DNA of 64,000 nucleotides from Gammaproteobacteria bacterium. Its GTDB lineage: Bacteria; Pseudomonadota; Gammaproteobacteria; JBCCGL01. This document shows, in pieces, positions 2,702 to 54,187 of the stretch. The DNA is taken from the NCBI GenBank assembly GCA_965277715.1, contig OZ255836.1, positions 4,202,767 to 4,266,766 of the forward strand, written 5' to 3'. Numbering within the stretch: the first letter of the stretch is position 1; every line of letters starts with the position of its first letter. A program made the position numbers and the translations under genes. The notes beneath the pieces were generated by a model. The model did not search any database. It was not told the DNA's origin and worked only from the letters and a program-made list of their open reading frames with translations.

Positions 2702-3029
2702 TTAAAGCGTTTTGTGCAAGGGCTTGAGAAGGGGAGTGGTTTGGCGGGCAGCCTGCTTAAACAAGTGGATCAAGGGCGGCGGATTGCCACAGAGTTAAGC
2801 GGGTATTTTGAGCCGGTTGCCCGGTGGTTTGGGGTCGCAGATGAGTGCGGTACAGGCCGTGAGAATATCCTGCTAATCAAGATAGACGCACGCCAACTGT
2901 TTTTGTGGAAAACAGGCTGACGCCGATTGCTGGTAGCATGGGCGTGTGTTTTGAGTTCACATAATCGGATGGCCGAGGAATGCGTTATACACAGTGTGTT
3001 TGCCATACTGTTTCTGATAACCGTGCAGC

Positions 3030-3995: not shown

Positions 3996-3998
3996 GGT

Positions 3999-5593: not shown

Positions 5594-5678
5594 AAGGGGA
5601 ATTCTCCAGTACACGGATAGATTGCGCAAGCCACCTGTTGTAGATTGTTTTATTTCCACACGCTGATTAAGCATTTAT

Positions 5679-6725: not shown

Positions 6726-6864
6726 AGTCGGCGCTATTTTTTAATCGCTTCTTATGTAGTGGATCTGGATATACTACGACACTGGATTTTTAGGATAAAA
6801 AAATATACTTTATAAATTCAAAAAGATACTTACACATTCAATTAGGAACAATCGGAGCAATACA

Positions 6865-7890
6865 ATGAAAAAAGCTTATATACCCCTTCTTCTGGCATCC
6901 AGTTTTGGTTTTCTCTCATCTTGTGGCGGTGGTGGCGGCGGCGGAAGTGGTGCTGGTGGTGTTCCACTTCCAGTTATACCCAACACACAAGTCACCATTG
7001 CCAATAGTAATGCTGATGTCACCACAGCGACCAGTTATGATGCCAGTACTGGATTAAATTCACCTTCACAAAGTGCTACTAATACTCTGGTTGGGGCAGT
7101 AACAACGACCCCTGACGTTGACTTATCACCGATTATGCTCACCCGTGACCAGCTTTTGCTTGCACGCAGTTTGTTTACGTCTAACTCAGGGTCTGGTGTT
7201 GTAGGGATTGTTACCAGCAATGCGATGAGTTGTGGCGGTGGTGGCTCTTTTGTCTTTACTTTGAATGATGCAGACAGTAATGGGCAATTGGGCACTGGTG
7301 ATACAGTAAGCATTACGTATTTTAATTGTGTTGAACCTGGTATTGCGTTGAATGGCGGTATAAGTCTTACCAATATAGCTACCACAGGTACCCCAACTAT
7401 GGTTCCTTATTCAATTAGTGTTTCTGCGGTATATAGTAATTTTCAAGCAGCTGCAGGTAATATTATTACCATACTGGATGGTGATATTACGGCTTCGGTA
7501 GCAAATACTGATGGTGTCAATTTGAATACGCAAGCTTCGGGTAACAGCTTATTAGCAGTAGGTAGTGGGCGGACTGATCGCCTGATAAATTTTGCTTTTT
7601 CATCTACCCAGACTGTTGCTACAGGTGCTTACACAACGACTGTCAACGCAACGGTTGACAACAATACTCAGGGAGGGCGTACAGTTTTTACTACAGTGAC
7701 TGCTTTTCAAGGAACCAGCGCCAGTGCCGATCCATTTGTTGGTGAAGCACTGATTACCGGAGCGGGTGGCAGCAGTATTCGCATGATTATGCTAGATGCC
7801 AGAACTGTGCGTTTGCAAATTGATGAGAATGGGGATAGTGCGGTAGATATAACCCGCGATACTACCTGGTCTGCATTGAACTTACTGTGA
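6865..7890 (+). CDS. Hypothetical lipoprotein with poly-Gly linker
   Basis: 341-aa ORF with lipobox LSSC followed by GGGGGGGSGAGG. It is Thr/Ser/Asn-rich. No family recognised. Confidence 0.7.
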   Translation: MKKAYIPLLLASSFGFLSSCGGGGGGGSGAGGVPLPVIPNTQVTIANSNADVTTATSYDASTGLNSPSQSATNTLVGAVTTTPDVDLSPIMLTRDQLLLARSLFTSNSGSGVVGIVTSNAMSCGGGGSFVFTLNDADSNGQLGTGDTVSITYFNCVEPGIALNGGISLTNIATTGTPTMVPYSISVSAVYSNFQAAAGNIITILDGDITASVANTDGVNLNTQASGNSLLAVGSGRTDRLINFAFSSTQTVATGAYTTTVNATVDNNTQGGRTVFTTVTAFQGTSASADPFVGEALITGAGGSSIRMIMLDARTVRLQIDENGDSAVDITRDTTWSALNLL

Positions 7891-8783
7891 CACCGCTTCC
7901 CAGGCAGCCAGCGTGGCAGGTATTGCCGTGCTGGCTGGCTGCTTGTATAACCAACAGGTTTACCAGGCAGTTAGCTGGTTTGTGTTTTATAGGTCTTTTG
8001 TCAGGCTTGCCGCTGCCTACTTTAGCAGATAGCTGGCAAACCGCATTAGGTGTAACTGCCATGCGTTTTACATTTGATGAGACCGACATGAACGGTAATC
8101 GATTAGTCAGAGAGCGTGGGACAGTTCCTGGTCTCACAATTTCCAGTCACTATCAGACAGGCGACTGGGGGCTTTTACTAGATGCCAGTGTCTATTCTGG
8201 TGAGGTAGGCTACGATGGACAAACACAGGCGGGGCAAGCATTTTTGTCCGAGACAGATGAGGTGCTTTACACGCTGAGATTCGCTGCTCTGTATCACTTA
8301 CACCGTTACCAATCGCTGCCATTATCTATCTATTCCCGCTTTGCTGTGGGCGCCCACTGGTGGGAAAGAACTATTCAGGGGCGAGGTAGTGTGACAGGGC
8401 TTGATGAGGTGTATCAATGGCAGACTGTGTACGCTGGTATAGTGTTAGATTACGCTTTTGCTGACCAAAGTCTCCTTACTGTAAATACAGGTGTTACACG
8501 AAGCATTAACCCGAAGGTAAAGGTTGATTTCGGCGGTCAGTTTGATCGCATTACCCTCGATTTAGAGCCCGATTATGGGCTGCGTATGGAAATATCGTGG
8601 GTGAAGCCGGTTGCTGAAAATTTGGCTATTAATGTGGGTGCTTTTTTCGAGGCGTGGGATTTTGGTGCAAGCGATAGGGAGGTGCTCAGAGTGAATGGTT
8701 CGCCTGCCGGTTTTGTATTTCAGCCAGCGTCTGAGGCACAGCAGGTAGGGGCTTTCTTCTCTGTTGGGCACCTTTGGCAGTAA
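7887..8783 (+). CDS. Hypothetical outer-membrane beta-barrel-like protein
   Basis: 298-aa ORF whose GTG start overlaps the lipoprotein stop (GTGA). It has a signal-like segment ...GLPLPTLA followed by alternating aromatic/hydrophilic strands. The exact start is uncertain. Confidence 0.55.
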   Translation: MTPLPRQPAWQVLPCWLAACITNRFTRQLAGLCFIGLLSGLPLPTLADSWQTALGVTAMRFTFDETDMNGNRLVRERGTVPGLTISSHYQTGDWGLLLDASVYSGEVGYDGQTQAGQAFLSETDEVLYTLRFAALYHLHRYQSLPLSIYSRFAVGAHWWERTIQGRGSVTGLDEVYQWQTVYAGIVLDYAFADQSLLTVNTGVTRSINPKVKVDFGGQFDRITLDLEPDYGLRMEISWVKPVAENLAINVGAFFEAWDFGASDREVLRVNGSPAGFVFQPASEAQQVGAFFSVGHLWQ

Positions 8784-8971
8784 CTTATCGTAGATGTAGG
8801 CAAAGTGATATAGGGTGAATCTAAATGGGCTTGTATAGAATCTAAAGAGTCCTCTTCGTATTAAAGGTAGATATTTGTAGTAAACGTTTTTATGCTTGCC
8901 GACGCCCGGTAACATGGCGTATTACCCCATGCCCGCTACCAAACAAACGTAAAAAATAGAGACAATGAAAC

Positions 8972-9790
8972 GTGGCCTCTGCAGTAAACAACCTGAGCAT
9001 CGAAGAAAATTACATCGAAGACGAACCGTATTACGCCGCCAATGGTGATGAGGTCACAGTATTCGAGGCCGCTTATAACAATCACTTGCCGGTTTTGTTA
9101 AAAGGCCCGACCGGTTGTGGTAAAACGCGCTTTATGGAGTATATGGCCTGGCGCCTTAAACGGCCATTGATCACTGTCTCCTGTCACGATGATTTAACCG
9201 CCTCCGATTTGGTGGGGCGTTATCTGATTAAAGGCGGGGAGACAGTCTGGATCGATGGGCCGCTGACACACGCCGTGCGGGCGGGCGGTATTTGCTACCT
9301 TGATGAAGTGGTCGAGGCGCGCAAAGATACGATGGTGGTTATCCATCCGCTCGGCGATGACCGCCGCGTATTACCAGTGGAAAAACGGGGTATTCTACTG
9401 CCCGCACCGCCTGAGTTTTGCCTGGCTATCTCCTACAACCCCGGTTATCAAAGTGTATTGAAAGATCTGAAACAAAGCACGCGGCAACGCTTTGTCGCCC
9501 TGGCGTTTGACTACCCGGATGCCGCCCTGGAGTCACGCATTGTCTGCAAAGAGTCGGGGGTCGATGAAAATACCGCCGGGCGTTTAGTGCAGTTTGCCGG
9601 GATGACGCGCAACCTTAAGGGCAGTGGCCTGGATGAGGGGGCCAGTACGCGCCTGCTGGTGCACGCGGCTAAGCTTATTGCCAGCGGCGTCCCGCCGGTA
9701 GTCGCCTGCCAGGGTGCGATCACTCAGGCCCTGAGTGACGATGGCGAGATGATTGCAGCGGTCAACGAGCTGTCGTCATCGCTATTCTAG
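8972..9790 (+). CDS. CbbQ/NorQ/NirQ-type MoxR-class AAA+ ATPase
   Basis: 272-aa ORF with Walker A GPTGCGKT and Walker B CYLDEV. Size and sequence are typical of the CbbQ/NorQ family. Confidence 0.85.
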
Positions 9791-13174: not shown

Positions 13175-13408
13175 ATTCAGGTGTGCTTTTTGTTATTTAG
13201 GGATAGTGGTGGTTTTATTCTAGTGGTTCACCCTGCAATTGTTCACCACCGCCAGTTGAGGGGGGTTATGAAAGTGGTAAATGATCAGCGAGAAAATGGG
13301 ACATTACAGTGGCCCATCAACAATCCATGGCTATAACACAAGGGCACATACTAACTGTTCTCATTATGGATTTTCAATATTCGTTGACGCATAAGTGTTA
13401 GGTATTCG

Positions 13409-14479
13409 TTACTCGCCTTGTACAACAGCCTGGCTTTCAAGGTAGGAGATTGGCGGGTATTGGGGTGGGTAGTTTTTGTCGTAACATGTTGGCAGGCACG
13501 CCATTTTATAGTCTGCGTTAGCATTAAAGAAAAACGGAATGGAGTAACGCGGGCTATCACTGGTATTGTTGTTGGCAAAATGCTTGACGCTGACAAATAA
13601 ACAATTTGACCACTGTTTAAGTAATTCACCGGTATTAACGATAAAAGCATCTTCAATAACCGGCGCGTGAATCCAGCACTGTCTTTTTTCACTGTAGATA
13701 ACCAGGCCGGGGCTATCTTGTGCCAGTATTGTGAAGAAGGTGGTGTCAACGTGTGGCGCAATACCGTATTCATCTGTTTGGGTTTTAGGAATGGCCGGGT
13801 AACGTGTCATCCGCAAACGGTACATGGGGGACGTAAATGCAGGGGTGAAGAAGTCTTGTTTGAGGTTGAGTGCGCGTGCGTAAATCGGTAGCAGTCGCTT
13901 GGCCAGTTTTTCTATTTGTTTTGCGTAGTGGCCAATATTTTCCCGAAAGTGGGGCAGTTGGTTTTCCTCTGGCCATTGGTTGTCATTCAGGGTCGTTTGG
14001 TGATCCCGCTTTAGTACAAATGCCTCATTGAGATTACCCTTGTCACGGGTGGGCAATTTGCGGTTTTTGACGGGGAGATAACCCACTCCCTTGATTGGCC
14101 AGTCGGGCCGGTCCATGAGCAGTGAATGCTTTATTGGCAATGGTAGTGCGTGAAATCGTTGCGCTTCGGCGAAGGTTTGTTTCAGTAGACCTTCGGGAAA
14201 CTGGTGACCGATAATGGAGCAAAAACCAACGTGTAAGCAGGCTTCGCACAATTGGGTGGCGATGGTTTCCAGCGCTGACTGGCTTTGCGTGGTGAAATAC
14301 TCGCTGACATCGATCAGTGGAATGTCACCAGCTTGTGCTGTTTGCACCTGACTGGTATCCCAGCTACGCGATTCATTGCGCAGTTGTGCCTCTTTTTTAT
14401 ATGGGTCGAACGTGTCGACAGTGGTGGATGTTGTTGCGTTATTATGAGGTGAGGCGGTCATCAGTGATTGCTCTGTCAT
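13409..14479 (-). CDS. 2-oxoglutarate/Fe(II)-dependent oxygenase (isopenicillin N synthase family)
   Basis: 356-aa ORF with the HxD motif HVDTTFFTIL, a distal His in VKHFANNN, and RYSIPFF (RxS). Confidence 0.8.
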   Translation of the reverse strand: MTEQSLMTASPHNNATTSTTVDTFDPYKKEAQLRNESRSWDTSQVQTAQAGDIPLIDVSEYFTTQSQSALETIATQLCEACLHVGFCSIIGHQFPEGLLKQTFAEAQRFHALPLPIKHSLLMDRPDWPIKGVGYLPVKNRKLPTRDKGNLNEAFVLKRDHQTTLNDNQWPEENQLPHFRENIGHYAKQIEKLAKRLLPIYARALNLKQDFFTPAFTSPMYRLRMTRYPAIPKTQTDEYGIAPHVDTTFFTILAQDSPGLVIYSEKRQCWIHAPVIEDAFIVNTGELLKQWSNCLFVSVKHFANNNTSDSPRYSIPFFFNANADYKMACLPTCYDKNYPPQYPPISYLESQAVVQGE

Positions 14480-14768
14480 AAATATCGTTGAGTGACGCTA
14501 TGCTTTGTAACATATCGTTGAATAAATCGGGGAGTACTTGCGCCTTGGGTGGCATGTAGTCAGTGCCGACAATGGTGACACCTCCACAGCGAAAACACCC
14601 CCGTTCAAGTGCTTCTTCCCTGGCGGCAACAGCGTGCAAGGTCATGTTGATACCCCCCAGTTGCACAGCGTCATAGACGAATGTGGCAAGCTCCCGTTTC
14701 GCCAGCGCCAGGGCTTTGGGTTTGTTGACGGTCATCGCATTTAAATCAGCGTTTTTCATGCTATGCAA
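14442..14768 (-). CDS. Hypothetical protein
   Basis: 108-aa ORF, co-directional with the oxygenase gene and overlapping its annotated start by 38 nt. No family recognised. Confidence 0.4.
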   Translation of the reverse strand: MHSMKNADLNAMTVNKPKALALAKRELATFVYDAVQLGGINMTLHAVAAREEALERGCFRCGGVTIVGTDYMPPKAQVLPDLFNDMLQSIASLNDIYDRAITDDRLTS

Positions 14769-14840
14769 CTATCTACGTTATGGTGATGTTAGTCAAATAG
14801 GCGGTTATTTCCTCTCTCTCCTCTTCCCCCGGGTTTCTTG

Positions 14841-14869
14841 TTGACATGGCAAGCTGTTATTTATAGTAT
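14841..14869 (+). promoter_or_regulatory. Sigma70-type promoter for the peroxiredoxin-like/TetR operon
   Basis: TTGACA (14841-14846), a 17-nt spacer, then TAGTAT (14864-14869). It lies about 40 nt upstream of the ATG at 14909, which has a GGGAG ribosome-binding site. Confidence 0.55.
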
Positions 14870-14872
14870 TCT

Positions 14873-14886
14873 GGAACGTTCGTTCC
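14873..14886. promoter_or_regulatory. Palindromic operator candidate GGAACGttCGTTCC
   Basis: Perfect 6+6 inverted repeat immediately downstream of the -10 box. The TetR-family gene is the second gene of this operon. Confidence 0.45.
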
Positions 14887-14908
14887 ATTATTGCGGGAGT
14901 TGTTTTTT

Positions 14909-15454
14909 ATGTCATCACGTACTTCATTAATGCCGCGTGAGGCGGTACCTTCTTTGGCATTACCGCTGGTAGGCGGTGACCATTGGTCACTGGCGGATCA
15001 GCAGCCGGAAAATTTTACGCTGATAGTGTTTTACCGTGGCCGACATTGCCCTATTTGTTCGATGTATCTTGGTGATTTGAACCGTAAAGCGGCCGATTTT
15101 GCCGCACGCGGTGTAACGATTGTTGTTGCATCCACCGACGGTGAGGCACGCGCAGCCGATGCTAAAAGTGAGTGGAAACTTGAAAACCTGGCGGTTGCCT
15201 ATGGTATGAGTATCGAAAAAGCCCGTGAGTGGGGTTTGTATGTTTCTGCCAGCCGTGGCAAAACGTCTATCGGTATCGAAGAGCCTGCACTGTTTGGCGA
15301 GCCGGGCGTGTTTTTGATACGCCCCGACCAAACGCTGTATTACGGTGCCACGCAGACCATGCCTTTTGCCCGTCCTGGGTTTGCCGATTTGTTAAAGGCT
15401 GTTGAATTTGCCGTTGATAAAGATTACCCAGCGCGTGGGGAAGTGGCGGGCTGA
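14909..15454 (+). CDS. Peroxiredoxin-like (AhpC/TSA/redoxin family) protein
   Basis: ORF 14891-15454; the ATG at 14909 is preferred because of the RBS. It has a thioredoxin-fold pattern with HCPICSMY (CxxC-like) after FYRG. Confidence 0.7.
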   Translation: MSSRTSLMPREAVPSLALPLVGGDHWSLADQQPENFTLIVFYRGRHCPICSMYLGDLNRKAADFAARGVTIVVASTDGEARAADAKSEWKLENLAVAYGMSIEKAREWGLYVSASRGKTSIGIEEPALFGEPGVFLIRPDQTLYYGATQTMPFARPGFADLLKAVEFAVDKDYPARGEVAG

Positions 15455-15487
15455 TTTGTTTGATGCCTACACGGTTGCGTATTAATT

Positions 15488-16084
15488 GTGGCCAGAACGA
15501 AGCATTTTGACCGGGATACTGCACTTGAAGCGGCGATGACGCTCTTTTGGAAACGGGGGTATCACGCCACGTCGGTGCAGATGCTGGTCGATGCCACTGG
15601 GTTGAGTCGATCCAGCCTCTACGCGTCATTTGGTGATAAGCAGGTTTTGTTTTTGGCCGCTATTGAGCTGTATTTGGAAAGTGTAAACCGGGCGCGTATT
15701 GCTCAGATGATGGCGAGTGAATCGCCGCGTGATGGGATCGAGCAGTTTTTTAATGACATGATTGATTTTTCAACCGGTAAGGGTAAGCGGTTGGGGTGTC
15801 TGCTGACAAATTCCGCTATCGAGTTTGGGCGGGGTGACGGTGAGGTTCAAGCGAGAATTTTCGGGGTTTTTAGTTCCGTTGAGAGTGCCTTTGCAAAAAC
15901 AGTTGCCAGAGGGCAGGCGCGCAAAGAGATTGCGACGGCACAAAGCCCTCAGGCGATGGCACGTTTTTTAATGACGCTGGTGCAGGGGGTAAGGGTAATG
16001 TCCCAGGTCAATCCAAAAAAGGCATGGTTGCGTAGTGCGCTGGCTGTTGGTTTGGGGGTTATCGATCATCAGCAGGCGGTATAA
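15488..16084 (+). CDS. TetR/AcrR-family transcriptional regulator
   Basis: 198-aa ORF with an N-terminal HTH (FWKRGYHATSVQMLVDATGLSRSSLYASFGDK) typical of TetR. Confidence 0.9.
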   Translation: MARTKHFDRDTALEAAMTLFWKRGYHATSVQMLVDATGLSRSSLYASFGDKQVLFLAAIELYLESVNRARIAQMMASESPRDGIEQFFNDMIDFSTGKGKRLGCLLTNSAIEFGRGDGEVQARIFGVFSSVESAFAKTVARGQARKEIATAQSPQAMARFLMTLVQGVRVMSQVNPKKAWLRSALAVGLGVIDHQQAV

Positions 16085-16098
16085 GTTATTGTTATTTT

Positions 16099-16266
16099 TT
16101 ATTTGGATGTACGATTTTTTATCGATTGCACCACGTCTACAGACACCAGAATTATTACAAAGGTGACAATGGCAATAAAAGGCAGCTCGCCGATGGATTC
16201 GGCCAGCCCGCCTACGAAGGCGATAAAGACGATAGCTGATAAAATACTGCTGATTATATTGTCCAC
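16099..16266 (-). CDS. Small hydrophobic protein (55 aa), not in ORF track
   Basis: A GTG start gives MDNIISSILSAIVFIAFVGGLAESIGELPFIAIVTFVIILVSVDVVQSIKNRTSK, which has two predicted TM segments. It lies 33 nt downstream of the amidase stop on the same strand. Confidence 0.35.
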   Translation of the reverse strand: MDNIISSILSAIVFIAFVGGLAESIGELPFIAIVTFVIILVSVDVVQSIKNRTSK

Positions 16267-16299
16267 GGGATTCTCATTTTGTTTAATTGGATTGCGGGT

Positions 16300-17625
16300 T
16301 TATTCTTCAATCTGTTGCAACAGCCAGCGTGCCGTTCTGAACAGTCTGGCATCGTCACCCCTGGCCGCGACTAATTGTGCCCCAACCGGCAAACCGCCTG
16401 ACCCCTGGAATAGGGGGAGATTAAGGGCTGGCATACCGCACAATGTCCACAAGGTGCAGAATGCCGGGTCACCTGTGGTGCGTATACCCGGTGCCTCGCC
16501 TGCTGCTGAGGGGGTCAGTATTGCATCGTAATCTTCCAATATGCTGTTTAAAAGCAAGGTGTAGATTTCAATTCGCTCTATGGCGTTGTTGTAATCTGTG
16601 GCCAGTATGCGCTGCCCGCTTTCGATCATTTCACGCAGTTTTTCGCTCAATTGGTCTGCACCATCGCGGTGGTAGCGGGAGAAGTTTTTTGCCAGGTCGG
16701 CTTCCATAATAATACGCTGGTGTTCCAATGCGGTGTCGAATTCTGCTGCGAGGTCAACCACATCGACCGGTGAGCCGATGTGTTCGATCAGTTCTTTGAA
16801 GGCTTCTTTTGTCGCATCGTCCGCACGTTCCCAGACGGGGGTGCGAACAAAGGCGATGCGGGGCTCCACCGGTGGCGGCGTCGCCATAACCTGGCCAATA
16901 TAGGGCCGGGCTTGTGGGCGCATGGCCCTGTCCCTGGCATCGTAGACCATTAAGGTATCTGCAATTAGCGCGAGGTCGTCGAGGTTGCGCGCAAATACAC
17001 CGACTGTATCGAGCGCGTGGGATTGTTTGAGCACACCGTATCGGGAGATTCTGCCATAGCTGGGTTTGAAGCCGAATACACCACAAAATGAGGCGGGGCG
17101 AATCACCGAGCCGTTGGTTTGTGTACCGACCGCCAGGGGTGTCATATAGGCGGCCACGGCGGCGGCAGAACCGCTTGAGGAGCCACCGGGGGTGTGTGCA
17201 GGGTTGTGCGGGTTGCGGGTTTTACCGGGGGCGTATACCGCCAGTTCAGTGGTGACTGTTTTGCCCAGTATAATCGCGCCCGCTTCACGCAGTGTACCGA
17301 TCAAGCTGGCATCTGTGGACGGGGTTCTACCGGTGCACAGTGCCGTGCCGTATTCGGTGGGTAGGCTGGCGGTGTCGATAATGTCTTTAATACCGACGGG
17401 CACACCGTGTAATGGCCCGGTGGGCCTGCCGTGGCTGTGCAATTGGTCAGCCTGGCGTGCCTGCTCCAGGGCCAATCCGGCGTCGAGGTGCGCCCAGGCG
17501 CCGATGTCCGGCTCAAATTCACTGATTCTGTCGAGGCAGGATTGCACCAGTTGCCCGGCGGTGATGCTGCCTTCCCGGATAGCCTCAGCGGCTGCGGTGG
17601 CGCTAAGTTGATTACCCTGCATCAT
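16300..17625 (-). CDS. Amidase (amidase-signature family)
   Basis: 441-aa ORF with the AS motif GGSSSGSAAAVAA. The start overlaps the stop of the TRAP large permease. Confidence 0.9.
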   Translation of the reverse strand: MMQGNQLSATAAAEAIREGSITAGQLVQSCLDRISEFEPDIGAWAHLDAGLALEQARQADQLHSHGRPTGPLHGVPVGIKDIIDTASLPTEYGTALCTGRTPSTDASLIGTLREAGAIILGKTVTTELAVYAPGKTRNPHNPAHTPGGSSSGSAAAVAAYMTPLAVGTQTNGSVIRPASFCGVFGFKPSYGRISRYGVLKQSHALDTVGVFARNLDDLALIADTLMVYDARDRAMRPQARPYIGQVMATPPPVEPRIAFVRTPVWERADDATKEAFKELIEHIGSPVDVVDLAAEFDTALEHQRIIMEADLAKNFSRYHRDGADQLSEKLREMIESGQRILATDYNNAIERIEIYTLLLNSILEDYDAILTPSAAGEAPGIRTTGDPAFCTLWTLCGMPALNLPLFQGSGGLPVGAQLVAARGDDARLFRTARWLLQQIEE

Positions 17626-18974
17626 TATTTTCCAAACAGCGCTTCAGGCAGCCAAAGTACCAGTGACGGGACGTTGTATATAATTACCATCGCCAGAATC
17701 ACGATCAATAAATAAGGCATGATGCCGCGAAAGATTTCCATTAGCTGGATGTGGGGTGGGGCCACGCCTTTCAGGTAGTAGGCGGCCATCGCCATCGGCG
17801 GTGTCAGAAAGGAGGTCTGTAGATTGAGTGCCACCAATATACCAAAAAACAGCGGGTCGACGTTGAAGGTCGCCAGCATTGGCAGAAAGATCGGCACGAA
17901 GATAATGATGATCTCGGTCCACTCCAATGGCCAGCCCAGCAGAAAAATAATTGCCTGGGCGAGTATCAGAAAGCCCACGGTGCTGAGGTCGAGCGACAGT
18001 ACCCATTGGTTAATCAGTTCGTGCCCACCGAGGTAGGAGAATACGGCGGCAAACGTCCACGAGCCAACAAACAACCAGCACACCATCGCCGAGGTTTTGG
18101 CGGTGAGGTAAACCGCTTCTTTCAGGCGTTCCCAGGAGAGTGTGCGGTACAGTGCCGCCAGGAGCAGGCCGCCAAAAGCGCCGACGCCAGCCGCTTCAGC
18201 CGGTGTTGCCAGCCCTAGCAGGATGGCGCCCAGGACGCTCAGTATCAGTATCGCCAGTGGCACAAATGAGGTGAGTAACTCCCACAGAATTTTACCCATT
18301 GGGGGAATGTCCTCTTCGCGTGGCTTCGGCGCCAGCGAAGGGTTGAGTGCCGCACGACCAACGACATAGATCATATACATGCCCGCCAGCATCAGGCCGG
18401 GGATCATGGCGGCGGCGTATAAGCGCAAGGGCGATATTTCGGCTATCGCCGAGTAGACGATGAGCATGATAGACGGTGGAATCAGAATGCCAAGACAGCC
18501 CCCGGCGCAAATCACACCCGTGGCAAAACGGTGGTCGTAACCCGCTTTGAGCATGGCGGGCAGGGCCAGCATGCCCATCAGGGTGACCACTGCGCCAATG
18601 ATGCCCGTCGCGGTGGCAAACACTGAGCAAGTGACCAGCGCGGCCACTGCCATAGAGCCAGGCAGGTTGCGGGCGGCGAGCTGGATGCTGAAAAACAGGC
18701 GGTTAACGATGTTGGCGCGCTCAACCACGTAGCCCATGAATAAGAATAGCGGTACGGCTACCAGCACGTCGTTAGACATGACGGAAAAGGTATTTTGTAC
18801 AAATAAATCAAAAATGCGGTTATCGAATAAGTGATCCATACGAAAGGGGTCGTAGTAGGCGTAGTAGCCAAAACCGATGCCCATAGCGATCAGGGTGAAG
18901 GCGATTGGAAAGCCGAGCAGAACCATGAAGATAAACAGGCCCAGCATCATAATGGCGATTTGTGGGTCGGTCAT
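17625..18974 (-). CDS. TRAP transporter large permease (DctM family)
   Basis: 449-aa polytopic membrane ORF typical of DctM. It is coupled (ATGA overlap) to the upstream small permease. Confidence 0.9.
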   Translation of the reverse strand: MTDPQIAIMMLGLFIFMVLLGFPIAFTLIAMGIGFGYYAYYDPFRMDHLFDNRIFDLFVQNTFSVMSNDVLVAVPLFLFMGYVVERANIVNRLFFSIQLAARNLPGSMAVAALVTCSVFATATGIIGAVVTLMGMLALPAMLKAGYDHRFATGVICAGGCLGILIPPSIMLIVYSAIAEISPLRLYAAAMIPGLMLAGMYMIYVVGRAALNPSLAPKPREEDIPPMGKILWELLTSFVPLAILILSVLGAILLGLATPAEAAGVGAFGGLLLAALYRTLSWERLKEAVYLTAKTSAMVCWLFVGSWTFAAVFSYLGGHELINQWVLSLDLSTVGFLILAQAIIFLLGWPLEWTEIIIIFVPIFLPMLATFNVDPLFFGILVALNLQTSFLTPPMAMAAYYLKGVAPPHIQLMEIFRGIMPYLLIVILAMVIIYNVPSLVLWLPEALFGK

Positions 18975-19558
18975 GATGCCTGCTCCTGGTGTTGTGCCGT
19001 TTGTTGTTCACGCATCAGCCTGGTTTCTGTTTCCTGCACATCGTGAAGCCGGGCGGGCCACTGGCCGGTTTTTATACAGATAATGCAGCGTACCGACTCG
19101 GCGAATCCCTGTAATAGTACTAACAGACCGGCAATTGGAATTAACGATTTGAAAAAGTAGATCTGGATGCGCGAGGGGCTGCTCCAGCTCACTTCTTTGT
19201 AAAACCAGGAATCTGAGGCGAACCAGTAACCGTAGTAAAGCAGTGCTACAGCACCTGGCGCCAGAAACAGGATGTATAGCACCAAATCGATACTGGCTTG
19301 TACCCGTAGTGGCAGCAGGCGGTAAACCACATCACCGCGCACGTGTGCACCCTGTGACAATGCGTAGGCACCGGCCATCATAAACAGCGCGCCGTACATT
19401 TGTACGCTCATATCGAAAGCCCACACGGTGGGGGCATTGAGCACGTAGCGAACGAACACTTCGTAGCAGGTGGAAAATGTCAGGATAAGGATGCACCAGG
19501 CGAATGTTTTACCCATCCAGGCACTGAGGTTATCGATAAAGTGGAGTAGTCGGGTCAT
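18971..19558 (-). CDS. TRAP transporter small permease (DctQ family)
   Basis: 195-aa ORF with four hydrophobic segments, positioned between the DctP-like and DctM-like genes. Confidence 0.8.
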   Translation of the reverse strand: MTRLLHFIDNLSAWMGKTFAWCILILTFSTCYEVFVRYVLNAPTVWAFDMSVQMYGALFMMAGAYALSQGAHVRGDVVYRLLPLRVQASIDLVLYILFLAPGAVALLYYGYWFASDSWFYKEVSWSSPSRIQIYFFKSLIPIAGLLVLLQGFAESVRCIICIKTGQWPARLHDVQETETRLMREQQTAQHQEQAS

Positions 19559-35243: not shown

Positions 35244-35334
35244 GTTAAACACCTAAGTTAAACACCTAAGTTAAACACCTAAGTTAAACACCTAAGTTAA
35301 ACACCTAAGTTAAACACCTAAGTTAAACACTTAA
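35244..35334. repeat. Tandem repeat, 13 bp x 7 (GTTAAACACCTAA)
   Basis: Six identical units plus a seventh with one C>T change, in head-to-tail arrangement with no spacers. Confidence 0.95.
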
Positions 35335-43627: not shown

Positions 43628-46216
43628 ATGTTTAAAACCCTCCAATCCGTTGCGGCATTATTGCTTAGTTTCGGTCTGTTTATTATGGCCAATGGCCTAT
43701 TCTCCACACTGCTCGGCGTGCGTACCACCATTGAGGGATTCTCTGCGGGGATGGCGGGTTTAATCGTCGCCTGCTATTTTTTTGGCCTGCTTATTGGGGC
43801 GCGTTACGCGGTGCGCTTTGTCGGTGTCGGTGGCTATATCCGCACCTTTGCGGCATTTGCCTCGGTAATGTCGATCTCGGCTTTATTGCATGTGATTTGG
43901 GTCGACCCTTACGCGTGGATGGCGATGCGTATGCTGTCGGGGTTTTGTATGGCCGGGTTGGTGATGATTACCGAGAGCTGGCTCAATCAGCGTGCCAATA
44001 ACGCCATGCGTGGGCAGTTACTGTCATTTTATATGATCACCAACTACCTCGGTGGTGGTTGTGGTCAGTTTTTACTGCCGCTGGCTGACCCTGAAAAATT
44101 TCACCTGTTCAGCCTGGTCTCCATTTTGTTTTCGCTGGCATTAATTCCCGTTTTGATGACGCGCTCCAAGGCACCGCCACCGCCAAAACCGATGCCGATC
44201 AACCTGCGGGCACTGTTTCGCCTGTCGCCAGTAGGGGTATTCGGCGCGTTTTGTGCCGGTTGGATCAGCGCGACGAATAACGGTTTGTTGCCGGTATTCA
44301 CCCGCGAAATCGGCATGACGATAAACGGCACTTCAGTGTTTATGTTTTGCCTGATTTTTAGCGGGCTGTTACTACAGTGGCCTATCGGCAAACTGTCCGA
44401 CCGTATGGACCGCCGCCGCGTATTGCTGATTGTGGCCTCGGTAACACTGGTTTCCAGCGGTTTGATGTTTGTCGCGGTATATACCCGTGATCAATTTGGT
44501 TTTACGCCGTTGTTTATACTGGCGGCAGTGTACGGCAGTACGTTTTACACCCTCTACTCGATCAGCTCTGCACATATCGCCGATAACGCCTCGGCGGCGG
44601 GCGCTAGCATGGTAACCGTGGCCAGCGGTATTTTGGTGGTGTACGGCAGCGGTGCGATTATTGGCCCGATTGTCGTAGGGCAGGTAATGACTGTGCTGGG
44701 GCCACAGGGCATCTTTTTTACCATTGGCGCGATATTACTGTTGTTGTGTTTATACGTGGTGTATCGCCGCAATCGCCGTGTCGCGGTCAACGACAGCGAG
44801 AAACAGCCCTTTATACCGATGCCCGGCACGCAATTTACCGGGGCTGGGTTGTACAGCGCTGCCCGCCGGGAAGTTGACCGCGCCTTTTCAAAGCTGACCA
44901 GTGGCTTTGGATTGCGCGAACATTCAGACGACCCTACACTGGCGGCTTCACCGCCACAGCCAGCCGGAAATAACACCATGAGCCGCATCACCTCCTACCC
45001 CAAAGACCACTGGTCATTACAAGTGGATATTCCCTACAGCATGGGGGTAAAACAGGGTGGCTTAATTTTTCTCAGCGGGCAGGCGGATTTACGCGGTAAT
45101 GGCGAGGTATGCCATCCTGGTGATCTATTGAAACAGACGGCAGCGGCGATTGCCCATATCAAGACACTGTTTGCCGACCTTGGTAGCGACAGTGAAAAAC
45201 TGGTTAAGCTCACAGTGTTTTATGTCAACCGTGGTGATGTCGACCAGGGCGCGTATCAAGCAGAGATTGCCCGCTTACTCGGCACGCACAACCAGCCAGT
45301 GGTTGCGATGGTGCCACTGAGTCATTTCTTCTATCCCGGTGCGCTGGTTGAAATCGACGCAGTGGGTGTCGATTCGGTGGCACCGCGCCAATACGTTGCC
45401 GACCCGGCCTATGGCCCGGTGACACTTGGGTTAAGCCAGGCCTTGCGTTGTGGTGAGTATATTTTTATCGGTGGTACAACGGCGATAAGTGCCGATGGTA
45501 CGGTGCAACACCCCGACGATAGCGTGCAACAAACGCATCAGGTATTGGCCCGGCTTGAACGCTTGCTCGGTGAATTTGGGGCGGACAGGCGTGACCTGGT
45601 TAAGCTGAATAACTGGTTTGTTATTGCCGGTAATGCTGAAGAATGGTCGCAGAGTGCACAGGTGCGCGCTGATTTTTACCCCGAGCCTGGGCCGGTCGCG
45701 ACCGGCCATCCACTGCAAACCCTCGGTGCGCTAGGGCTTGCCATCAGCACCGATTGCTGGGCGATGCTCGGCGAGGATGGCAGCCGCATACCTAAACAAC
45801 ACGCCTGGCCTGAAGGGCACTGGGACTGGCCGATTCATTTGCCGTTCAAGCACGGCTTGATGTGCCCTTTAAGTACAGGTGGCAAGCTGATTTTTATGGG
45901 GGGGCAGGTATCGCTCGATCAGCAGGCCAATGTAATTGACCCCGGCAAACTGGCGGAACAAACGCGCACCAGCATGGAAAATATTGGCAAAGTACTGGCT
46001 GAGTTCGATGCGGGTTATGCCGATATTTTGAAATTGAACACCTGGTATCAGGGGAATAATGACCCTGATACAGACGCGGAGGCGCTGCATACCAGTGTGA
46101 ATACCCGCTCTGCGTACTTCCAAAAACCCGGCCCGGCGTCGACGGGTATACCTTTAGATAATTTATCTTATGAGGATATGCTGACCGAAACTGAGGTGGT
46201 GGCCTACCTGGAATAG
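43628..46216 (+). CDS. Fusion protein: YcaD-like MFS transporter plus three tandem RidA/YjgF domains
   Basis: Uninterrupted 862-codon ORF. Residues 1 to about 385 resemble E. coli YcaD (12 TM). A linker ...DDPTLAASPPQPAGNNT follows. Then come three segments of about 135-140 aa, each with the RidA pattern (GLIFLSGQ...LVKLTVFY...VEIDAV; YIFIGGTT...LVKLNNWF; LIFMGGQV...ILKLNTWY...TEVVA). Confidence 0.8.
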   Translation: MFKTLQSVAALLLSFGLFIMANGLFSTLLGVRTTIEGFSAGMAGLIVACYFFGLLIGARYAVRFVGVGGYIRTFAAFASVMSISALLHVIWVDPYAWMAMRMLSGFCMAGLVMITESWLNQRANNAMRGQLLSFYMITNYLGGGCGQFLLPLADPEKFHLFSLVSILFSLALIPVLMTRSKAPPPPKPMPINLRALFRLSPVGVFGAFCAGWISATNNGLLPVFTREIGMTINGTSVFMFCLIFSGLLLQWPIGKLSDRMDRRRVLLIVASVTLVSSGLMFVAVYTRDQFGFTPLFILAAVYGSTFYTLYSISSAHIADNASAAGASMVTVASGILVVYGSGAIIGPIVVGQVMTVLGPQGIFFTIGAILLLLCLYVVYRRNRRVAVNDSEKQPFIPMPGTQFTGAGLYSAARREVDRAFSKLTSGFGLREHSDDPTLAASPPQPAGNNTMSRITSYPKDHWSLQVDIPYSMGVKQGGLIFLSGQADLRGNGEVCHPGDLLKQTAAAIAHIKTLFADLGSDSEKLVKLTVFYVNRGDVDQGAYQAEIARLLGTHNQPVVAMVPLSHFFYPGALVEIDAVGVDSVAPRQYVADPAYGPVTLGLSQALRCGEYIFIGGTTAISADGTVQHPDDSVQQTHQVLARLERLLGEFGADRRDLVKLNNWFVIAGNAEEWSQSAQVRADFYPEPGPVATGHPLQTLGALGLAISTDCWAMLGEDGSRIPKQHAWPEGHWDWPIHLPFKHGLMCPLSTGGKLIFMGGQVSLDQQANVIDPGKLAEQTRTSMENIGKVLAEFDAGYADILKLNTWYQGNNDPDTDAEALHTSVNTRSAYFQKPGPASTGIPLDNLSYEDMLTETEVVAYLE

Positions 46217-46428: not shown

Positions 46429-47400
46429 ATGCCTTCAACACGAAACCAGATGATCGACTTTATTCAACGAGGAAATATCGAACCTGAGCATGTTGATGCT
46501 GCGCTTGCCGTCTCAGGCATTAGGCCCAGCCCAAAGAGCTGGCGCCAGTTCCTTGAACGGTTATCAGTGGTGCTGGGGGGGCTATCACTGGCTTTCGCGC
46601 TGATGTTTTTGGTCGCTTATAACTGGGGGAGCATTGGTCGGTTCGAAAAATTCGGGTTGGTTCAACTCTCGATTGTGCTTGCGATTGGCGGTTACTGGAA
46701 ACTGGGTGCCGACACACTTTCGGCAAAAATTTCACTACTGGTCGGCTCGATTCTGATCGGTGTACTCCTTGCGTTATATGGCCAGACATACCAAACCGGT
46801 GTCGACCCCTGGCAACTCTTTTTTAGCTGGGCGCTTTTGTTATTGCCCTGGGCGTTACTGGGGCGGTTCGCCGCCCTCTGGGTCGTTTGGCTATTACTCA
46901 TTAACCTGAGTTTAGTGTTATACCACCAACCGATCCACAGGGGGGTTTGGTTTCCCTTTGAACTTGAGGTCGATTCGTTATGGATATTGTTTATTTTTAA
47001 CAGCTTTGCATTACTAATCTGGGAGCTTGCCGCTGGCTATTTCCGATGGCTTTCGGCGCGATGGCCCACACGGTTATTGGCAGTGATGAGTGGGGTTTTA
47101 ATTACCTGGCTGGTAGTGATGGCCATATTTGATAATAGTGATGCCCACAGCCCCGGTGTTTTAGTGTGGTTGATCTGGGTGCCGGTTATTTATTTTACCT
47201 ATCGCACACTTCAACCTGATCTCTTTATGCTTGCGGGCATGTGTTTGTCGGGCATTACAATTATCGTTTCGGTTCTGTTGTGGCTTACGGTCGATGGTCT
47301 CGAAGAAGGTGGTTTCCTGTTGATTGCGATCACTTTAATCGGCTTGAGCAGTGGTGCGACGCTCTGGTTAAAAGGCATTCATCGGGGGTGGCAGTCATGA
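46429..47400 (+). CDS. DUF2157-like integral membrane protein
   Basis: 323-aa ORF with a soluble N-terminal segment of about 40 aa followed by multiple TM helices. It is the first gene of a translationally coupled triplet. Confidence 0.6.
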   Translation: MPSTRNQMIDFIQRGNIEPEHVDAALAVSGIRPSPKSWRQFLERLSVVLGGLSLAFALMFLVAYNWGSIGRFEKFGLVQLSIVLAIGGYWKLGADTLSAKISLLVGSILIGVLLALYGQTYQTGVDPWQLFFSWALLLLPWALLGRFAALWVVWLLLINLSLVLYHQPIHRGVWFPFELEVDSLWILFIFNSFALLIWELAAGYFRWLSARWPTRLLAVMSGVLITWLVVMAIFDNSDAHSPGVLVWLIWVPVIYFTYRTLQPDLFMLAGMCLSGITIIVSVLLWLTVDGLEEGGFLLIAITLIGLSSGATLWLKGIHRGWQS

Positions 47401-48464
47401 GTGGCTCACAACTGTGGCAGACATTGTGTGAGGCAGGCTTAGTGTCGGGCGCGATGCCAGAGGCCGGTGATACCCATTCGCCTTGGTATATCGCCGTCTT
47501 AATGGCTATCCTGGGATGGCTTGCCGCCGTATTTCTCCTTGGGTTCATCTTTGGGGGGTTGGGCATTCTCGAAAACCCGGTGGCCTTGTTCATCGTTGGT
47601 AGCCTGATGATCGGTGGCGCTTACCTGTTGTTGCGAAATAATCAGGCTGTCTTTGCCGAATACTTTTCTTTGACTGTCAGCCTGGCCGGGCAGGTATTAG
47701 TACTATGGGGGCTCTTCCTGTCGAACGATGCTGAAACATACCTCTTCTGGTTCACGATGATGACACTACATAGTGCACTGGCCTTTTTTATGCCGGGGGC
47801 TGTGCACCGGGTGTTTTCGGCTTATTTCGCCTGTATTGCTTTTATCGCGCTCTTAACTCTCTCGGGTGCGCAGCATCTTGGTGCCGGGCTGATACTGGGT
47901 TGTGTTGTATGGCTATGGTTAGCCGAATTTCGTTACGTCAAATACATGCCACAAATTCGTAGTGTGGGGTACGGATTGGTATTGGCATTACTCACTATCA
48001 AAGGCTTGTTGCTCGTACCATTCTTCAGTGATATCTGGTGGAGTGACAGTCCCCAGCCCGATATCTGGGTTCAGCCCTGGGCGGGGCAACTACTATCTGG
48101 TCTTGTTTTAGTTTATCTGGCCTGGCAGTTGCTGCATCGGCAGCATTGCGCGCCTGACAACAACCCGACGCCCCGAACCCTGGTTGCCGGATTGGGTGCT
48201 GCCGTTATTATTGCCGCTGCCTCATTTGAGGCAGCCGGTATTATTGTCGGTATCGTTATATTGCTACTTGGTTTTGTCGGCAGTAATCGAGTGCTTTTTG
48301 GTCTGGGTGGTGCCTCATTATTATTTTACATTTCGGCCTACTACTACCTGCTCGACAACACATTGTTGGTTAAATCAATGTCGTTGCTATCGCTTGCTAT
48401 TGTGTTATTTGGTTGCCGGTTTTGTCTGAACCGATTGGTAAAGGAGAGGCCTGTCGATGCGTAG
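47397..48464 (+). CDS. DUF4401-like integral membrane protein
   Basis: Start MSGSQLWQTL at an ATGA overlap with the previous stop. Polytopic, about 355 aa. The ORF-track start at 47241 is rejected. Confidence 0.6.
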   Translation: MSGSQLWQTLCEAGLVSGAMPEAGDTHSPWYIAVLMAILGWLAAVFLLGFIFGGLGILENPVALFIVGSLMIGGAYLLLRNNQAVFAEYFSLTVSLAGQVLVLWGLFLSNDAETYLFWFTMMTLHSALAFFMPGAVHRVFSAYFACIAFIALLTLSGAQHLGAGLILGCVVWLWLAEFRYVKYMPQIRSVGYGLVLALLTIKGLLLVPFFSDIWWSDSPQPDIWVQPWAGQLLSGLVLVYLAWQLLHRQHCAPDNNPTPRTLVAGLGAAVIIAAASFEAAGIIVGIVILLLGFVGSNRVLFGLGGASLLFYISAYYYLLDNTLLVKSMSLLSLAIVLFGCRFCLNRLVKERPVDA

Positions 48465-48990
48465 AAATTTAGCATTGCTCTCGATGGTGGTGATTCTGGC
48501 TGGCATTAACGGATCGATCTGGAATAAAGAAAAGCACCTCGCGATGGGTGATATTGTTTATCTCGATCTAGTGCCGGTTGATCCGCGCTCATTAATGCAG
48601 GGCGATTATATGGCCTTGCGTTTTCGCATCGGCGAGGAGGTTTATCAGGCCTTGCCAAAAAGTGAGGAATATAAGCGTTGGCGTCATAATGCCGACGCTG
48701 AAGATGGCTATGTCGTCGTCGCGCTGGATGATAGAAGCATCGCCCGGTTTAAACGGTTGTACAGCGAGGGCGAACCGCTAGCTGAAAACGAATTGCGATT
48801 GCGTTATCGGGTTCGCAATGGTGCGGTCAAGTTCGCGACCAATGCGTTTTTCTTTGAAGAGGGTCAGGGTGAGGTGTATCAGCCTGCTCGCTATGGTCAA
48901 TTTCGAGCCGATGAATCGGGTGAGCTGTTACTGGTTGCGATGTACGATAAGGATCTGCTTAAGCTTGAAGCCAATGGGGAAGGTTCGTAA
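48457..48990 (+). CDS. GDYXXLXY-domain protein
   Basis: 177-aa ORF with an N-terminal TM/signal segment and the eponymous motif GDYMALRF. It overlaps the previous gene by 8 nt. Confidence 0.7.
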   Translation: MRRNLALLSMVVILAGINGSIWNKEKHLAMGDIVYLDLVPVDPRSLMQGDYMALRFRIGEEVYQALPKSEEYKRWRHNADAEDGYVVVALDDRSIARFKRLYSEGEPLAENELRLRYRVRNGAVKFATNAFFFEEGQGEVYQPARYGQFRADESGELLLVAMYDKDLLKLEANGEGS

Positions 48991-48992
48991 CC

Positions 48993-49607
48993 TTATTGGG
49001 GTAGCTTTTCCTGAGCTGAAGTTTCCCTTGCATCGAATTCGGCGATTCTCTCATCGCCGCACTTTCCCACTACCTCGTGCAGCTTTTTTACATAAGGCAT
49101 TAACACAGCCAATTGTTCACGGGTGATTTTATAACGCCGATCATAGCGTGCGCCGATATAGGCGTAGTCCAATAACTCAAATAATGTTCTTTGTGCGTCG
49201 GTTTCGCGGGGTAGCACACCGATAAGATCAGGGCAGTAGTCTGCGGCTAAATCCTCCAGAATATCGAGGTGGTGTTCTTGCGGGCTTTCAGCGGCGAAGA
49301 TCAGCAAAATGGTTTTATAGGCGTGTTCGCATGCCTGGTGTAATTCAAATGCAGCCAGCTTGTAACTCTCCCGGTCAAAGTTTGTATTGCTGCTGATAAA
49401 AAACTCTTTGGCAAATACAAACACTTCATCCAGATCGGCCTGGATAAGCCGCTTCTCCTGCGCAGGGGCTCGCACTCGATTTTGATCAAATTCCAGATTG
49501 CCGCTGTCATACAGCGATATGCCCTGCTGTATGATTTCGGTAAAAAAATATTGCCCCTGGCGGAGCTTGTAATTGATGAAGTCAATATCTCGGGCAAGAA
49601 TGCGCAC
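48993..49607 (-). CDS. HEPN-domain protein; 5'-truncated nucleotidyltransferase-HEPN fusion
   Basis: HEPN-like helices (...ELHQACEHAYKTILL...LLDYAYIGARYDRRY). The frame stays open upstream to 49736 and reads SDYDILAVTRHEY..., the distal part of a minimal nucleotidyltransferase domain. The GS...D catalytic head and any start codon are missing. Confidence 0.6.
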   Translation of the reverse strand: MRILARDIDFINYKLRQGQYFFTEIIQQGISLYDSGNLEFDQNRVRAPAQEKRLIQADLDEVFVFAKEFFISSNTNFDRESYKLAAFELHQACEHAYKTILLIFAAESPQEHHLDILEDLAADYCPDLIGVLPRETDAQRTLFELLDYAYIGARYDRRYKITREQLAVLMPYVKKLHEVVGKCGDERIAEFDARETSAQEKLPQ

Positions 49608-49855
49608 GTAGGCGCTGACGTTTAACCCCGCGCAGGCGTCTTTGATTGTGTCCCAAAGTGCGATATTTGTCGCGATATACTCGTGGCGGGTAACGGCAAG
49701 GATGTCGTAGTCGCTCCTTTGTAGACATTGGGGCTTTTATATCGGGTACTTTGCAGGGAATGGTGGCAGGCAAGCCGGTGTTACAGGTAATATGCTGCCC
49801 GTGCCAGGCCGTGCAGCGGCTTAGGTTAAAAACCCAAAAAAACCTGGAGGAAGCA

Positions 49856-53894: not shown

Positions 53895-53997
53895 CTAGTG
53901 TCCTGTCAATTCTGGATGGGTACGGGGTTAGTGGGTTTCGCTCGTGGTGTTTCAGTGTTTTTTCTTTACTCTTTACAGAGCGAAGCTACCGCTTCTC

Positions 53998-54103
53998 GGT
54001 AACTGCTCCTGCGTTACTCTATCTCCTGTATCCATACAGTCGTCGGCAACTGCTCCTGCGTTGCTCTATCTCCTGTATCCATACAGTCGCCGGCAACTGC
54101 TCC
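53998..54103. repeat. Tandem repeat, 47 bp x about 2.3, each unit with hairpin CTGTATccATACAG
   Basis: Units at 53998-54044 and 54045-54091 differ at 4 positions (3 within the shared core). A partial third unit reaches 54103. The ORF 53944-54234 across it is judged spurious. Confidence 0.9.
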
Positions 54104-54187
54104 TTGTGGAAAGCAGCCCGATCGATCGCAATAATCGATGGCCATTGCACCCTATCGATTTCCCAGAGATTGATAAAAGCCAGCTAA

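Follow-up and report, generated by a model that had tools for sequence, protein, structure and literature searches.

In this study, we describe a gene in a 64,000-nucleotide stretch of DNA from a Gammaproteobacteria bacterium (assembly GCA_965277715.1, contig OZ255836.1, positions 4,202,767 to 4,266,766 of the forward strand; hereafter the window) that joins a transporter of the major facilitator superfamily (MFS) to three tandem domains of the Rid (YjgF/L-PSP) superfamily (3xRid). The MFS-3xRid fusion is a genuine in-frame gene, and it is evolutionarily rare and recent. Taking the observations below together, we consider it reasonably probable that this real and recent fusion carries a flexibly tethered, cytoplasmic Rid pseudo-trimer lacking the hallmark arginine of RidA, which would serve as a non-canonical enzyme acting on the cargo of the transporter; most of the uncertainty falls on the functional half of this reading.

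The fused gene and its confirmation

The gene occupies positions 43628..46216 (+) and appears in the open reading frame (ORF) listing of the window as a single ORF with an ATG start and 862 codons plus a stop; it is also present in two further contigs, designated L085 and L001. An earlier note, made from the sequence alone, had described an uninterrupted 862-codon ORF in which an MFS transporter is followed by three RidA/YjgF domains, and the ORF listing together with the Pfam matches to MFS_1 and PF01042 bears this out. From the N- to the C-terminus, the protein consists of a 12-helix YcaD-like MFS part, a disordered linker of ~50 residues and three Rid domains. The MFS core with its 12 transmembrane (TM) helices (residues 1-381; 43628..44770, +) was recognised as YcaD-like by Pfam MFS_1, NCBIfam PRK03633, the AlphaFold2 model and Foldseek. 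It continues into a conserved cytoplasmic tail (residues 382-433, RRNRR...QPFIPMPGTQFTGAGLYSAARREVDRAFSKL; 44771..44926, +), which is shared with the fusion of L001 and with the separate MFS genes of contigs L002 and L003. The following Pro/Ala-rich junction (residues 434-450; 44927..44977, +) comes from the end of the former MFS gene and is not conserved; the junctions of the window, L001 and L003 show no similarity and are mutually unalignable. The linker sequence reads ...REHSDDPTLAASPPQPAGNNT-M, and its closing methionine, Met451, is encoded by the ATG at 44978 (43628 + 450 x 3) and is followed by SRITSYP.

The first Rid domain (D1, residues 451-586; 44978..45385, +) contains the Pfam stretch 468-579, aligns to YabJ (1qd9) and keeps the GQ motif and Glu120. 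The second domain (D2, residues 587-722; 45386..45793, +) aligns to 5v4f and to Arabidopsis RidA (5hp7), and its pocket residues are degenerate. The third domain (D3, residues 723-862; 45794..46213, +) aligns to PH0854 (2dyy) and is the most conserved of the three, with the motif WPxGHWDWPxHLPxKHGxxC, R827 and E854. The pairwise identities of D1, D2 and D3 are 26-30% (BLASTP E 1e-14 to 1e-18), which points to an old internal triplication. The GC content shows no break across the MFS/Rid junction.

The fused frame is not an artefact. The second member of the 90%-identity cluster of the window protein, P0321, was found in a Logan assembly of the independent run DRR248315 (contig L085). It has 862 residues, 855 of which are identical to those of the window protein, and the linker holds two of the seven substitutions; at the nucleotide (nt) level, 2562 of 2589 positions (99%) are identical with zero indels, and the neighbouring genes are alike. 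Moreover, an orthologue of 859 residues and 75% identity, P0002 (GCA_024449935.1, contig L001), shares this architecture, with other genes around it. Because the identical frame recurs in the independent run and in the 75%-identical orthologue, a sequencing or assembly frameshift is ruled out.

In P0002, the internal methionine has been replaced (…RETAGRITSYP), and the Rid part could therefore hardly be produced there outside the fusion. The earlier suggestion that the ATG at 44978 additionally yields a free 3xRid protein thus holds as a possibility for the window and fails as a general rule. No Shine-Dalgarno sequence was found at the internal start at 44978, and the main start at 43628 is likewise without one. 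A promoter scan at the fused gene returned no match, and the terminator-like matches inside the fused ORF reached at most ~2 times the shuffle expectation.

The orthologous fusion on L001 is flanked by ATP sulfurylase/APS reductase genes and a napFDAGHBC nitrate-reductase cluster (262-4794 and 13236-19424), a gene content that suggests a sulfur-oxidising, nitrate-respiring organism. The contig (JAANSS011997034) comes from a very large whole-genome shotgun project and could thus be DNA of a symbiont or a contaminant within the assembly of a eukaryote.

Origin and rarity of the fusion

The two parts of the fusion are separate genes in a contig of a metagenome-assembled genome (MAG), L003, which is identical to L004 and L005. 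Its MFS gene (4646-6004) encodes 452 residues that are 76% identical to the MFS part of the window protein, and its 3xRid gene (6001-7230) encodes 409 residues that are 70% identical to the Rid part. The stop of the first and the start of the second share the four base pairs ATGA (...GAC TCA TGA / ATG AAC), and an RnfH gene lies upstream of the two parts as it does in L001. In L002, a single inserted gene of opposite orientation lies between the two, and the free MFS protein ends ~10 residues past the conserved …AARREVDRAFSKL (...DRAFSKL).

The junction of the window reads ACC ATG AGC, and its +1 frame gives CCA TGA; the old stop is still present, out of frame. According to the comparison with L003, the ATGA at 44978..44981 (+) is the former start of 3xRid (Met451) overlapping the former MFS stop. 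The frame that contains this relic TGA is open for just 27 codons upstream, which places the frame change within ~80 nt before 44978. Judged from these sequences, the fusion is best derived from an overlapping operon pair of a YcaD-like MFS gene and a free 3xRid gene, by a frame change upstream of the ATGA.

Among 5.8 billion clusters covered by a word-indexed search, those of the window protein and of P0002 were the only ones in which MFS was joined to Rid, which makes two 90%-identity clusters and three sequences. JGI metagenome contigs scanned with the junction region gave no further fusion and only two free-standing Rid genes. The Rid part alone has hundreds of free-standing relatives of ~400-410 residues, with identities of up to 74%. 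An exhaustive HMMER search with the Rid part returned 1846 representatives at E<=1e-3 and at least 113 at E<=1e-30 (50%-identity clusters), nearly all of ~400 residues; among its longer proteins, every one was multi-Rid or had no Pfam domain besides Rid, and none had an MFS domain. One protein of this search, P0312 (803 residues), has six Pfam Rid stretches and would thus form two pseudo-trimers in one chain.

A motif-pattern scan of species-representative genomes gave 429 candidate stretches, 354 of which encode a 3xRid relative, and 80 loci with a free 3xRid gene were kept from it for the neighbourhood counts. In two alphaproteobacterial MAGs (L049 and L058), another YcaD-like MFS gene (~25% identity, best NCBIfam model PRK03633) lies directly upstream of 3xRid on the same strand. 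On this evidence, MFS and 3xRid genes are genuinely linked; the linkage has arisen two or more times but is by no means general.

In the literature, we found no paper on an MFS-Rid fusion and none on the function of 3xRid beyond that of Niehaus et al. (2015; BMC Genomics 16:382, PMC4433059), who named the tandem-triple Rid proteins 3x-RidA, read them as covalently linked trimers and gave EF_0115 of Enterococcus faecalis as an example. The earlier view of the whole architecture as uncharacterised therefore stands for the fusion to a transporter but not for the Rid triple, which has carried a name since 2015 and has abundant free homologues. The covalent Rid trimer architecture and the ordinary MFS fold are already known; the MFS-3xRid fusion, the Arg-less WPxGHWDWP family and the link of that family to YcaD-like transporters appear to be undescribed so far.

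Predicted structure of the transporter and the Rid module

The MFS half matched Pfam MFS_1 (PF07690) over residues 11-336 and a second stretch with 111.5 bits (cutoff 33.4). Its best NCBIfam MFS model was PRK03633, which we take to be the model of E. coli YcaD; the match covers residues 7-380, essentially the whole 12-TM core, in a model of 382 positions, and it scores 129.1 bits against an equivalog cutoff of 361. By these profile scores, the transporter is YcaD-like and lies outside the range of YcaD orthologues. It resembles the YcaD-type transporters in that PRK03633 is its best named model, but it differs from them in a score far under the equivalog cutoff, a conserved cytoplasmic tail of ~50 residues and the enzyme module that follows. 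The AlphaFold2 model has 12 long helices within residues 2-381, with a predicted local distance difference test score (pLDDT) of ~90-98 and a central loop at 177-200 between the two six-helix halves; a helix at 408-426 in the tail is of low confidence. Foldseek matched this half to NorA, NupG, G6PT1 and FLVCR1 with target-normalised TM-scores (TMt) of 0.72-0.82, and no sequence homologue in the PDB was found at E<1e-3. A motif-A-like sequence, GKLSDRMDRRR, was read from the sequence in the TM8-9 loop. The usual topology of 12-TM MFS proteins places both termini in the cytoplasm (N-in/C-in). Since the Rid module follows TM12 and the basic RRNRR, it would be cytoplasmic under this topology, as the earlier note had placed it.

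Other fusions occur in the same clade of YcaD-like MFS proteins. P0023, P0024 and P0025 (667-712 residues) are fused C-terminally to a PcaD/RutD-like alpha/beta-hydrolase, which supports a tendency of these transporters to recruit a cytoplasmic hydrolase-type partner. Two further sets of candidates were rejected as enzyme fusions. P0010 (728 residues), an apparent fusion of MFS and enoyl-CoA hydratase, breaks at about residue 290 of the MFS part into Arg/Ala-rich low complexity and looks like a frameshifted read-through. The MFS relatives P0036-P0052 of ~700-720 residues were also set aside; the two that were read, P0039 and P0043, end in an acidic helical repeat and not in an enzyme.

The Rid part (412 residues, alignment of 45 sequences) was modelled by AlphaFold2 as a single compact body with a pLDDT of 94.7 and a predicted template modelling score (pTM) of 0.94. 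In a Foldseek search of the PDB, the top matches of this model were the chorismatases 5a3k, 5ag3 and 4bps, which aligned over ~370 columns with E values of 1e-14 to 1e-15, TMt of 0.63-0.69 and identities of 13-16%, and which were the sole whole-chain matches; ordinary Rid monomers matched one domain each at a TMt of ~0.85. The chorismatase monomer is reportedly a single-chain, pseudo-threefold version of the RidA/YjgF trimer, and chorismatases are said not to use all three of their clefts. With this background, the whole-chain match supports the reading of the Rid module as a covalent pseudo-trimer, and the packing of the three domains that the earlier note had proposed is thus upheld as a prediction. 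However, the chorismatases FkbO and Hyg5, which share this whole-chain fold, are soluble, whereas the 3xRid of the window sits on a transporter, has no shikimate or chorismate genes nearby and is only 13-16% identical to them. We rejected the assignment of 3xRid as a chorismatase of the FkbO/Hyg5/XanB2 type on this structural identity and on the NCBIfam chorismatase model TIGR04444, which gave 19.9 bits against a cutoff of 325.

Pocket residues of the Rid domains

The 3xRid module is a member of the Rid (YjgF/YER057c/UK114) superfamily by Pfam, sequence alignment and its match to the chorismate-mutase-like Rid fold. The Pfam family Ribonuc_L-PSP (PF01042) matched three stretches with a total of 123.6 bits (cutoff 27.3), and D1, D2 and D3 each align separately to solved RidA, YabJ and PH0854 chains.

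According to Burman (2007; PMC1884159), the family has seven signature residues, Tyr17, Gly31, Asn56, Asn88, Arg105, Pro114 and Glu120; every ligand in the TdcF crystals is bound by Arg105, and Glu120 reaches across the subunit interface. The Arg, numbered 105 in E. coli TdcF/RidA, binds the substrate carboxylate. Niehaus et al. (2015; PMC4433059) divide the Rid subfamilies by this residue: those that have it are predicted imine hydrolases, and those that lack it are assigned "other functions". In the window protein, HMMER alignments to YabJ, Arabidopsis RidA and PH0854 place Val, Ala and Ser at the Arg105 position of D1, D2 and D3, respectively. A comparison with E. coli RidA likewise gave no Arg at position 105, a result cross-checked by these HMMER alignments to PDB sequences. 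In signature order, the residues are Y, G, H, Q, V, ?, E in D1, L, G, R, S, A, ?, S in D2 and F, G, N, H, S, ?, E in D3, where the question mark stands for Pro114, whose position is not reliably alignable, so that six of the seven residues are assessable.

The loss of Arg105 extends to the 45 family members: the position is held by I/V/L in D1, by Ala in D2 (41/45) and by Ser in D3 (39/45). Glu120 is kept in D1 (44/45) and in D3 (45/45) and is variable in D2, and the Gln32 position of D2 is variable like its Glu120 position. The Asn88 position is variable in D1 and D2 and is His in D3 (42/45); Asn56 is lost from D1 and D2 and kept in D3. The numbers of positions conserved at 90% or more are 19 in D1, 22 in D2 and 38 in D3, and the invariant residues of D3 include WPxGHWDWPxHLPxKHGxxC, R827 and E854. 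Among the residues conserved at this level are H461, E575, H731, W732, K741, H742, C746 and H821. The 3xRid module is asymmetric, as the chorismatases are reported to be.

The module thus has the Rid fold without the defining feature of RidA, Arg105 being replaced in all three domains. The earlier note had asked whether the active-site Arg and Glu are retained in each cleft; the Arg is in none of the domains, and the Glu is in D1 and D3 only. The criterion of Niehaus et al. (2015) groups the window protein with the Rid types devoid of this Arg, which "presumably serve other functions". The RidA/TdcF/YabJ homotrimers are similar to the window protein in their domain fold and in the Glu120, the Gly31 and the aromatic residue at the Tyr17 position that D1 and D3 keep. 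However, the homotrimers consist of three subunits, whereas the window protein is one chain in which Arg105 and Asn88 are lost everywhere, Asn56 remains in D3 only and D2 is degenerate. Likewise, the 3x-RidA proteins share the layout of three tandem Rid domains in one chain with the C-terminal 412 residues of the window protein, but they were classed by Niehaus et al. in the Arg-containing RidA subfamily and are described without a transporter fusion. The family of the window protein is without Arg105 and has its own invariant D3 motif. The family-wide loss of Arg105 and the asymmetrically conserved D3 mean that the label "RidA family / enamine deaminase" is probably misleading for these proteins.

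Gene neighbourhoods of free 3xRid proteins

In at least 10 loci (L020, L021, L022, L024, L028, L033, L036, L037, L039 and L078), a 665-residue FadH/OYE-type Fe-S flavoenzyme gene, in most of them ~2 kb upstream of position 6001, ends ~35 nt upstream of 3xRid on the same strand. These loci span Binatia, Thermodesulfobacteriota and Gammaproteobacteria, and a short-chain dehydrogenase/reductase (SDR) gene is often found just downstream. This tight, uncharacterised operon may be the best handle on the role of the 3xRid family. Six other loci (L009, L010, L027, L031, L035 and L065) combine a free 3xRid gene with a DDAH/amidinotransferase-like enzyme and with an ABC importer of the ProV type for betaine/choline, which scores above the TIGR01186 cutoff, and in L011, L015, L017 and L019 an amidase gene lies directly downstream. 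Neighbour clustering and representative scans also gave aldehyde dehydrogenases and SDRs as recurrent neighbours. From their gene content, these neighbourhoods look like small nitrogen-compound catabolism, often with an uptake system.

Proposed function and alternatives

We propose that the cytoplasmic C-terminal tail of the transporter continues, through the disordered tether of ~50 residues, into a compact pseudo-trimer of three Rid domains. The Rid module would be a small-molecule enzyme other than a canonical 2-aminoacrylate/imine deaminase, with one or two inter-domain clefts in use; an enzymatic role is suggested by the invariant polar constellation, the enzyme-rich gene contexts and the chorismatase precedent. 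It would act on the cargo of the transporter at the cytoplasmic face, a proposal that draws on the overlap of the two genes, on their fusion and on the alphaproteobacterial loci where such genes are independently adjacent. Because uptake systems recur beside the free family members, the transporter probably imports a small nitrogen-containing compound, which the Rid module would then convert. In that case, fusion would make permanent the 1:1 stoichiometry and the closeness to the membrane that gene overlap had already promoted.

A precedent by analogy, with no claim of homology, is LplT-Aas, in which an MFS gene lies beside an enzyme gene and transport is coupled to processing at the cytoplasmic face. 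LplT is reportedly an MFS lysophospholipid transporter whose cargo is re-acylated by the acyltransferase Aas. The two genes are adjacent in one operon and are fused in some bacteria. However, the enzyme family and the substrate of LplT-Aas are unrelated to those of the window protein.

The fusion, the overlapping split pair and the alphaproteobacterial adjacency together constitute a "Rosetta stone" link between two uncharacterised families: whatever one protein transports, the other probably consumes or produces. A single-chain Rid scaffold of the chorismatase type may here have been adapted to a different reaction. Being rare and recent, the fusion is a clue and not a widespread new system.

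A more specific version of the proposal is a working transporter-enzyme chimera. In this version, an Arg-less Rid module at the cytoplasmic mouth of the YcaD-type transporter, with a new Rid chemistry around the D3 His/Lys/Cys/His/Arg/Glu residues, would convert the emerging cargo (metabolic trapping) or make the exported species before efflux. We regard this version as speculative and, as it stands, unlikely. If true, it would supply the first function for the widespread 3xRid family and for the orphan YcaD-like MFS clade, and a new form of transport-coupled catalysis.

Several observations weigh against a tethered enzyme acting on transporter cargo. The earlier note had pictured the trimer as pre-assembled against the transporter. 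In the full-length AlphaFold2 model, whose alignment was checked for correct register, the pLDDT is 90.6 and the pTM is 0.58; residues 400-417 and 427-449 fall below a pLDDT of 50, and the two rigid bodies are joined by the flexible tether of ~50 residues with no confident docking of Rid to MFS. The picture of a trimer held against the transporter is therefore not supported. The gene linkage is narrow, and among the 80 loci a window-type MFS gene adjoins 3xRid only at L003/L005. The MFS relatives of 47-50% identity are unfused and have no Rid gene beside them, and the close Rid relatives P0057 and P0059 have no MFS gene in the contig sequence at hand. In a neighbour-joining tree, the window and L001 are sisters in 66 of 200 bootstraps, and the quartet site counts are 11, 5 and 8, figures that do not separate one shared fusion event from two. 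No third gene is consistently linked to the pair in the window, L001, L002 and L003, which leaves the substrate unconstrained; by their gene order, MFS and 3xRid appear to form a self-contained two-part module.

The fusion could also be selectively neutral. In this explanation, a small indel at the ATGA overlap merged two co-translated genes by read-through, and tethering brought no mechanistic gain, the parts working as they do when separate; the merger would have been tolerated since the C-terminus of the MFS protein and the N-terminus of the Rid protein are both cytoplasmic and flexible. The limitation of the fusion to two 90%-identity clusters, the split genes in close relatives, which are even separated by an inserted gene in one of them, the unconserved and disordered junction and the lack of predicted docking are all in keeping with such a merger. 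However, the frame has stayed open across lineages that differ in 25% of their residues although the linker has fully diverged, and the loss of the internal start codon in one lineage has made the Rid part there dependent on the fusion. We consider neutrality somewhat unlikely. It is compatible with a functional link between the two proteins and differs from the tethered-enzyme reading solely on whether tethering matters.

A second alternative, which the earlier note had favoured, is that the tethered module is a true RidA-type trimer and removes reactive, 2-aminoacrylate-like enamines or imines derived from, or arising alongside, the transported compound. All three segments have the Rid fold, D1 and D3 retain Glu120 and the GQ motif, and the FadH/OYE-type, amidase and DDAH-like neighbours could, speculatively, release imine-type intermediates. 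The Ser that D3 has in place of the Arg is also found in ~10% of the RidA-subfamily proteins (Niehaus et al., 2015; PMC4433059). However, Arg105 is absent from all three domains and across the 45 family members, and according to the same study, the exchange of this Arg for Ala leaves the plant and Salmonella enzymes with hardly any imine hydrolysis. Moreover, at most three of the six assessable signature residues survive in any domain, and the NCBIfam model TIGR00004 gave 85.4 bits, summed over the three domains, against a cutoff of 106.25; RutC was another of the NCBIfam Rid models matched below threshold. Because of the family-wide loss of Arg105, canonical enamine/imine quenching is doubtful, and we judge this alternative improbable.

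Finally, a non-enzymatic ligand sensor, in which the Rid pseudo-trimer would bind a cytoplasmic metabolite and thereby gate or adjust transport, is very improbable: small carboxylates are among the ligands of Rid clefts (Burman, 2007; PMC1884159), the canonical catalytic Arg is gone and other members of the MFS clade (P0039 and P0043) have long non-enzymatic C-terminal extensions, but the module is orthologous to a widespread free protein that is found in enzyme-rich clusters, usually with no transporter neighbour, its invariant D3 constellation of His, Lys, Cys, His, Arg and Glu looks catalytic, and no docking to the MFS part is predicted.

Other features of the window

Directly downstream of the fusion, positions 46429-48990 (+) encode DUF2157, DUF4401 and GDYXXLXY membrane proteins; these genes are kept in L085 and are absent beside the fusion of L001. 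At 48993-49720 (-), just a 204-residue HEPN ORF is open in the window, and L085 has at 8226-9350 an intact gene for a nucleotidyltransferase (Polbeta)-HEPN protein of 301 residues. Relative to L085, the window lacks ~397 nt (8954-9350 of L085) at ~49719/49720, and the alignment has a 1-nt gap. The window strain thus seems to carry a truncated or pseudogenised copy of the nucleotidyltransferase-HEPN gene.

An Rfam scan of the window gave no match, and a tRNA search of the window found none. Two tandem repeats were recorded: a 13-nt unit repeated 7 times with 98% matches at 35244-35334 (GTTAAACACCTAA) and a 47-nt unit repeated 2.3 times at 53996-54104.

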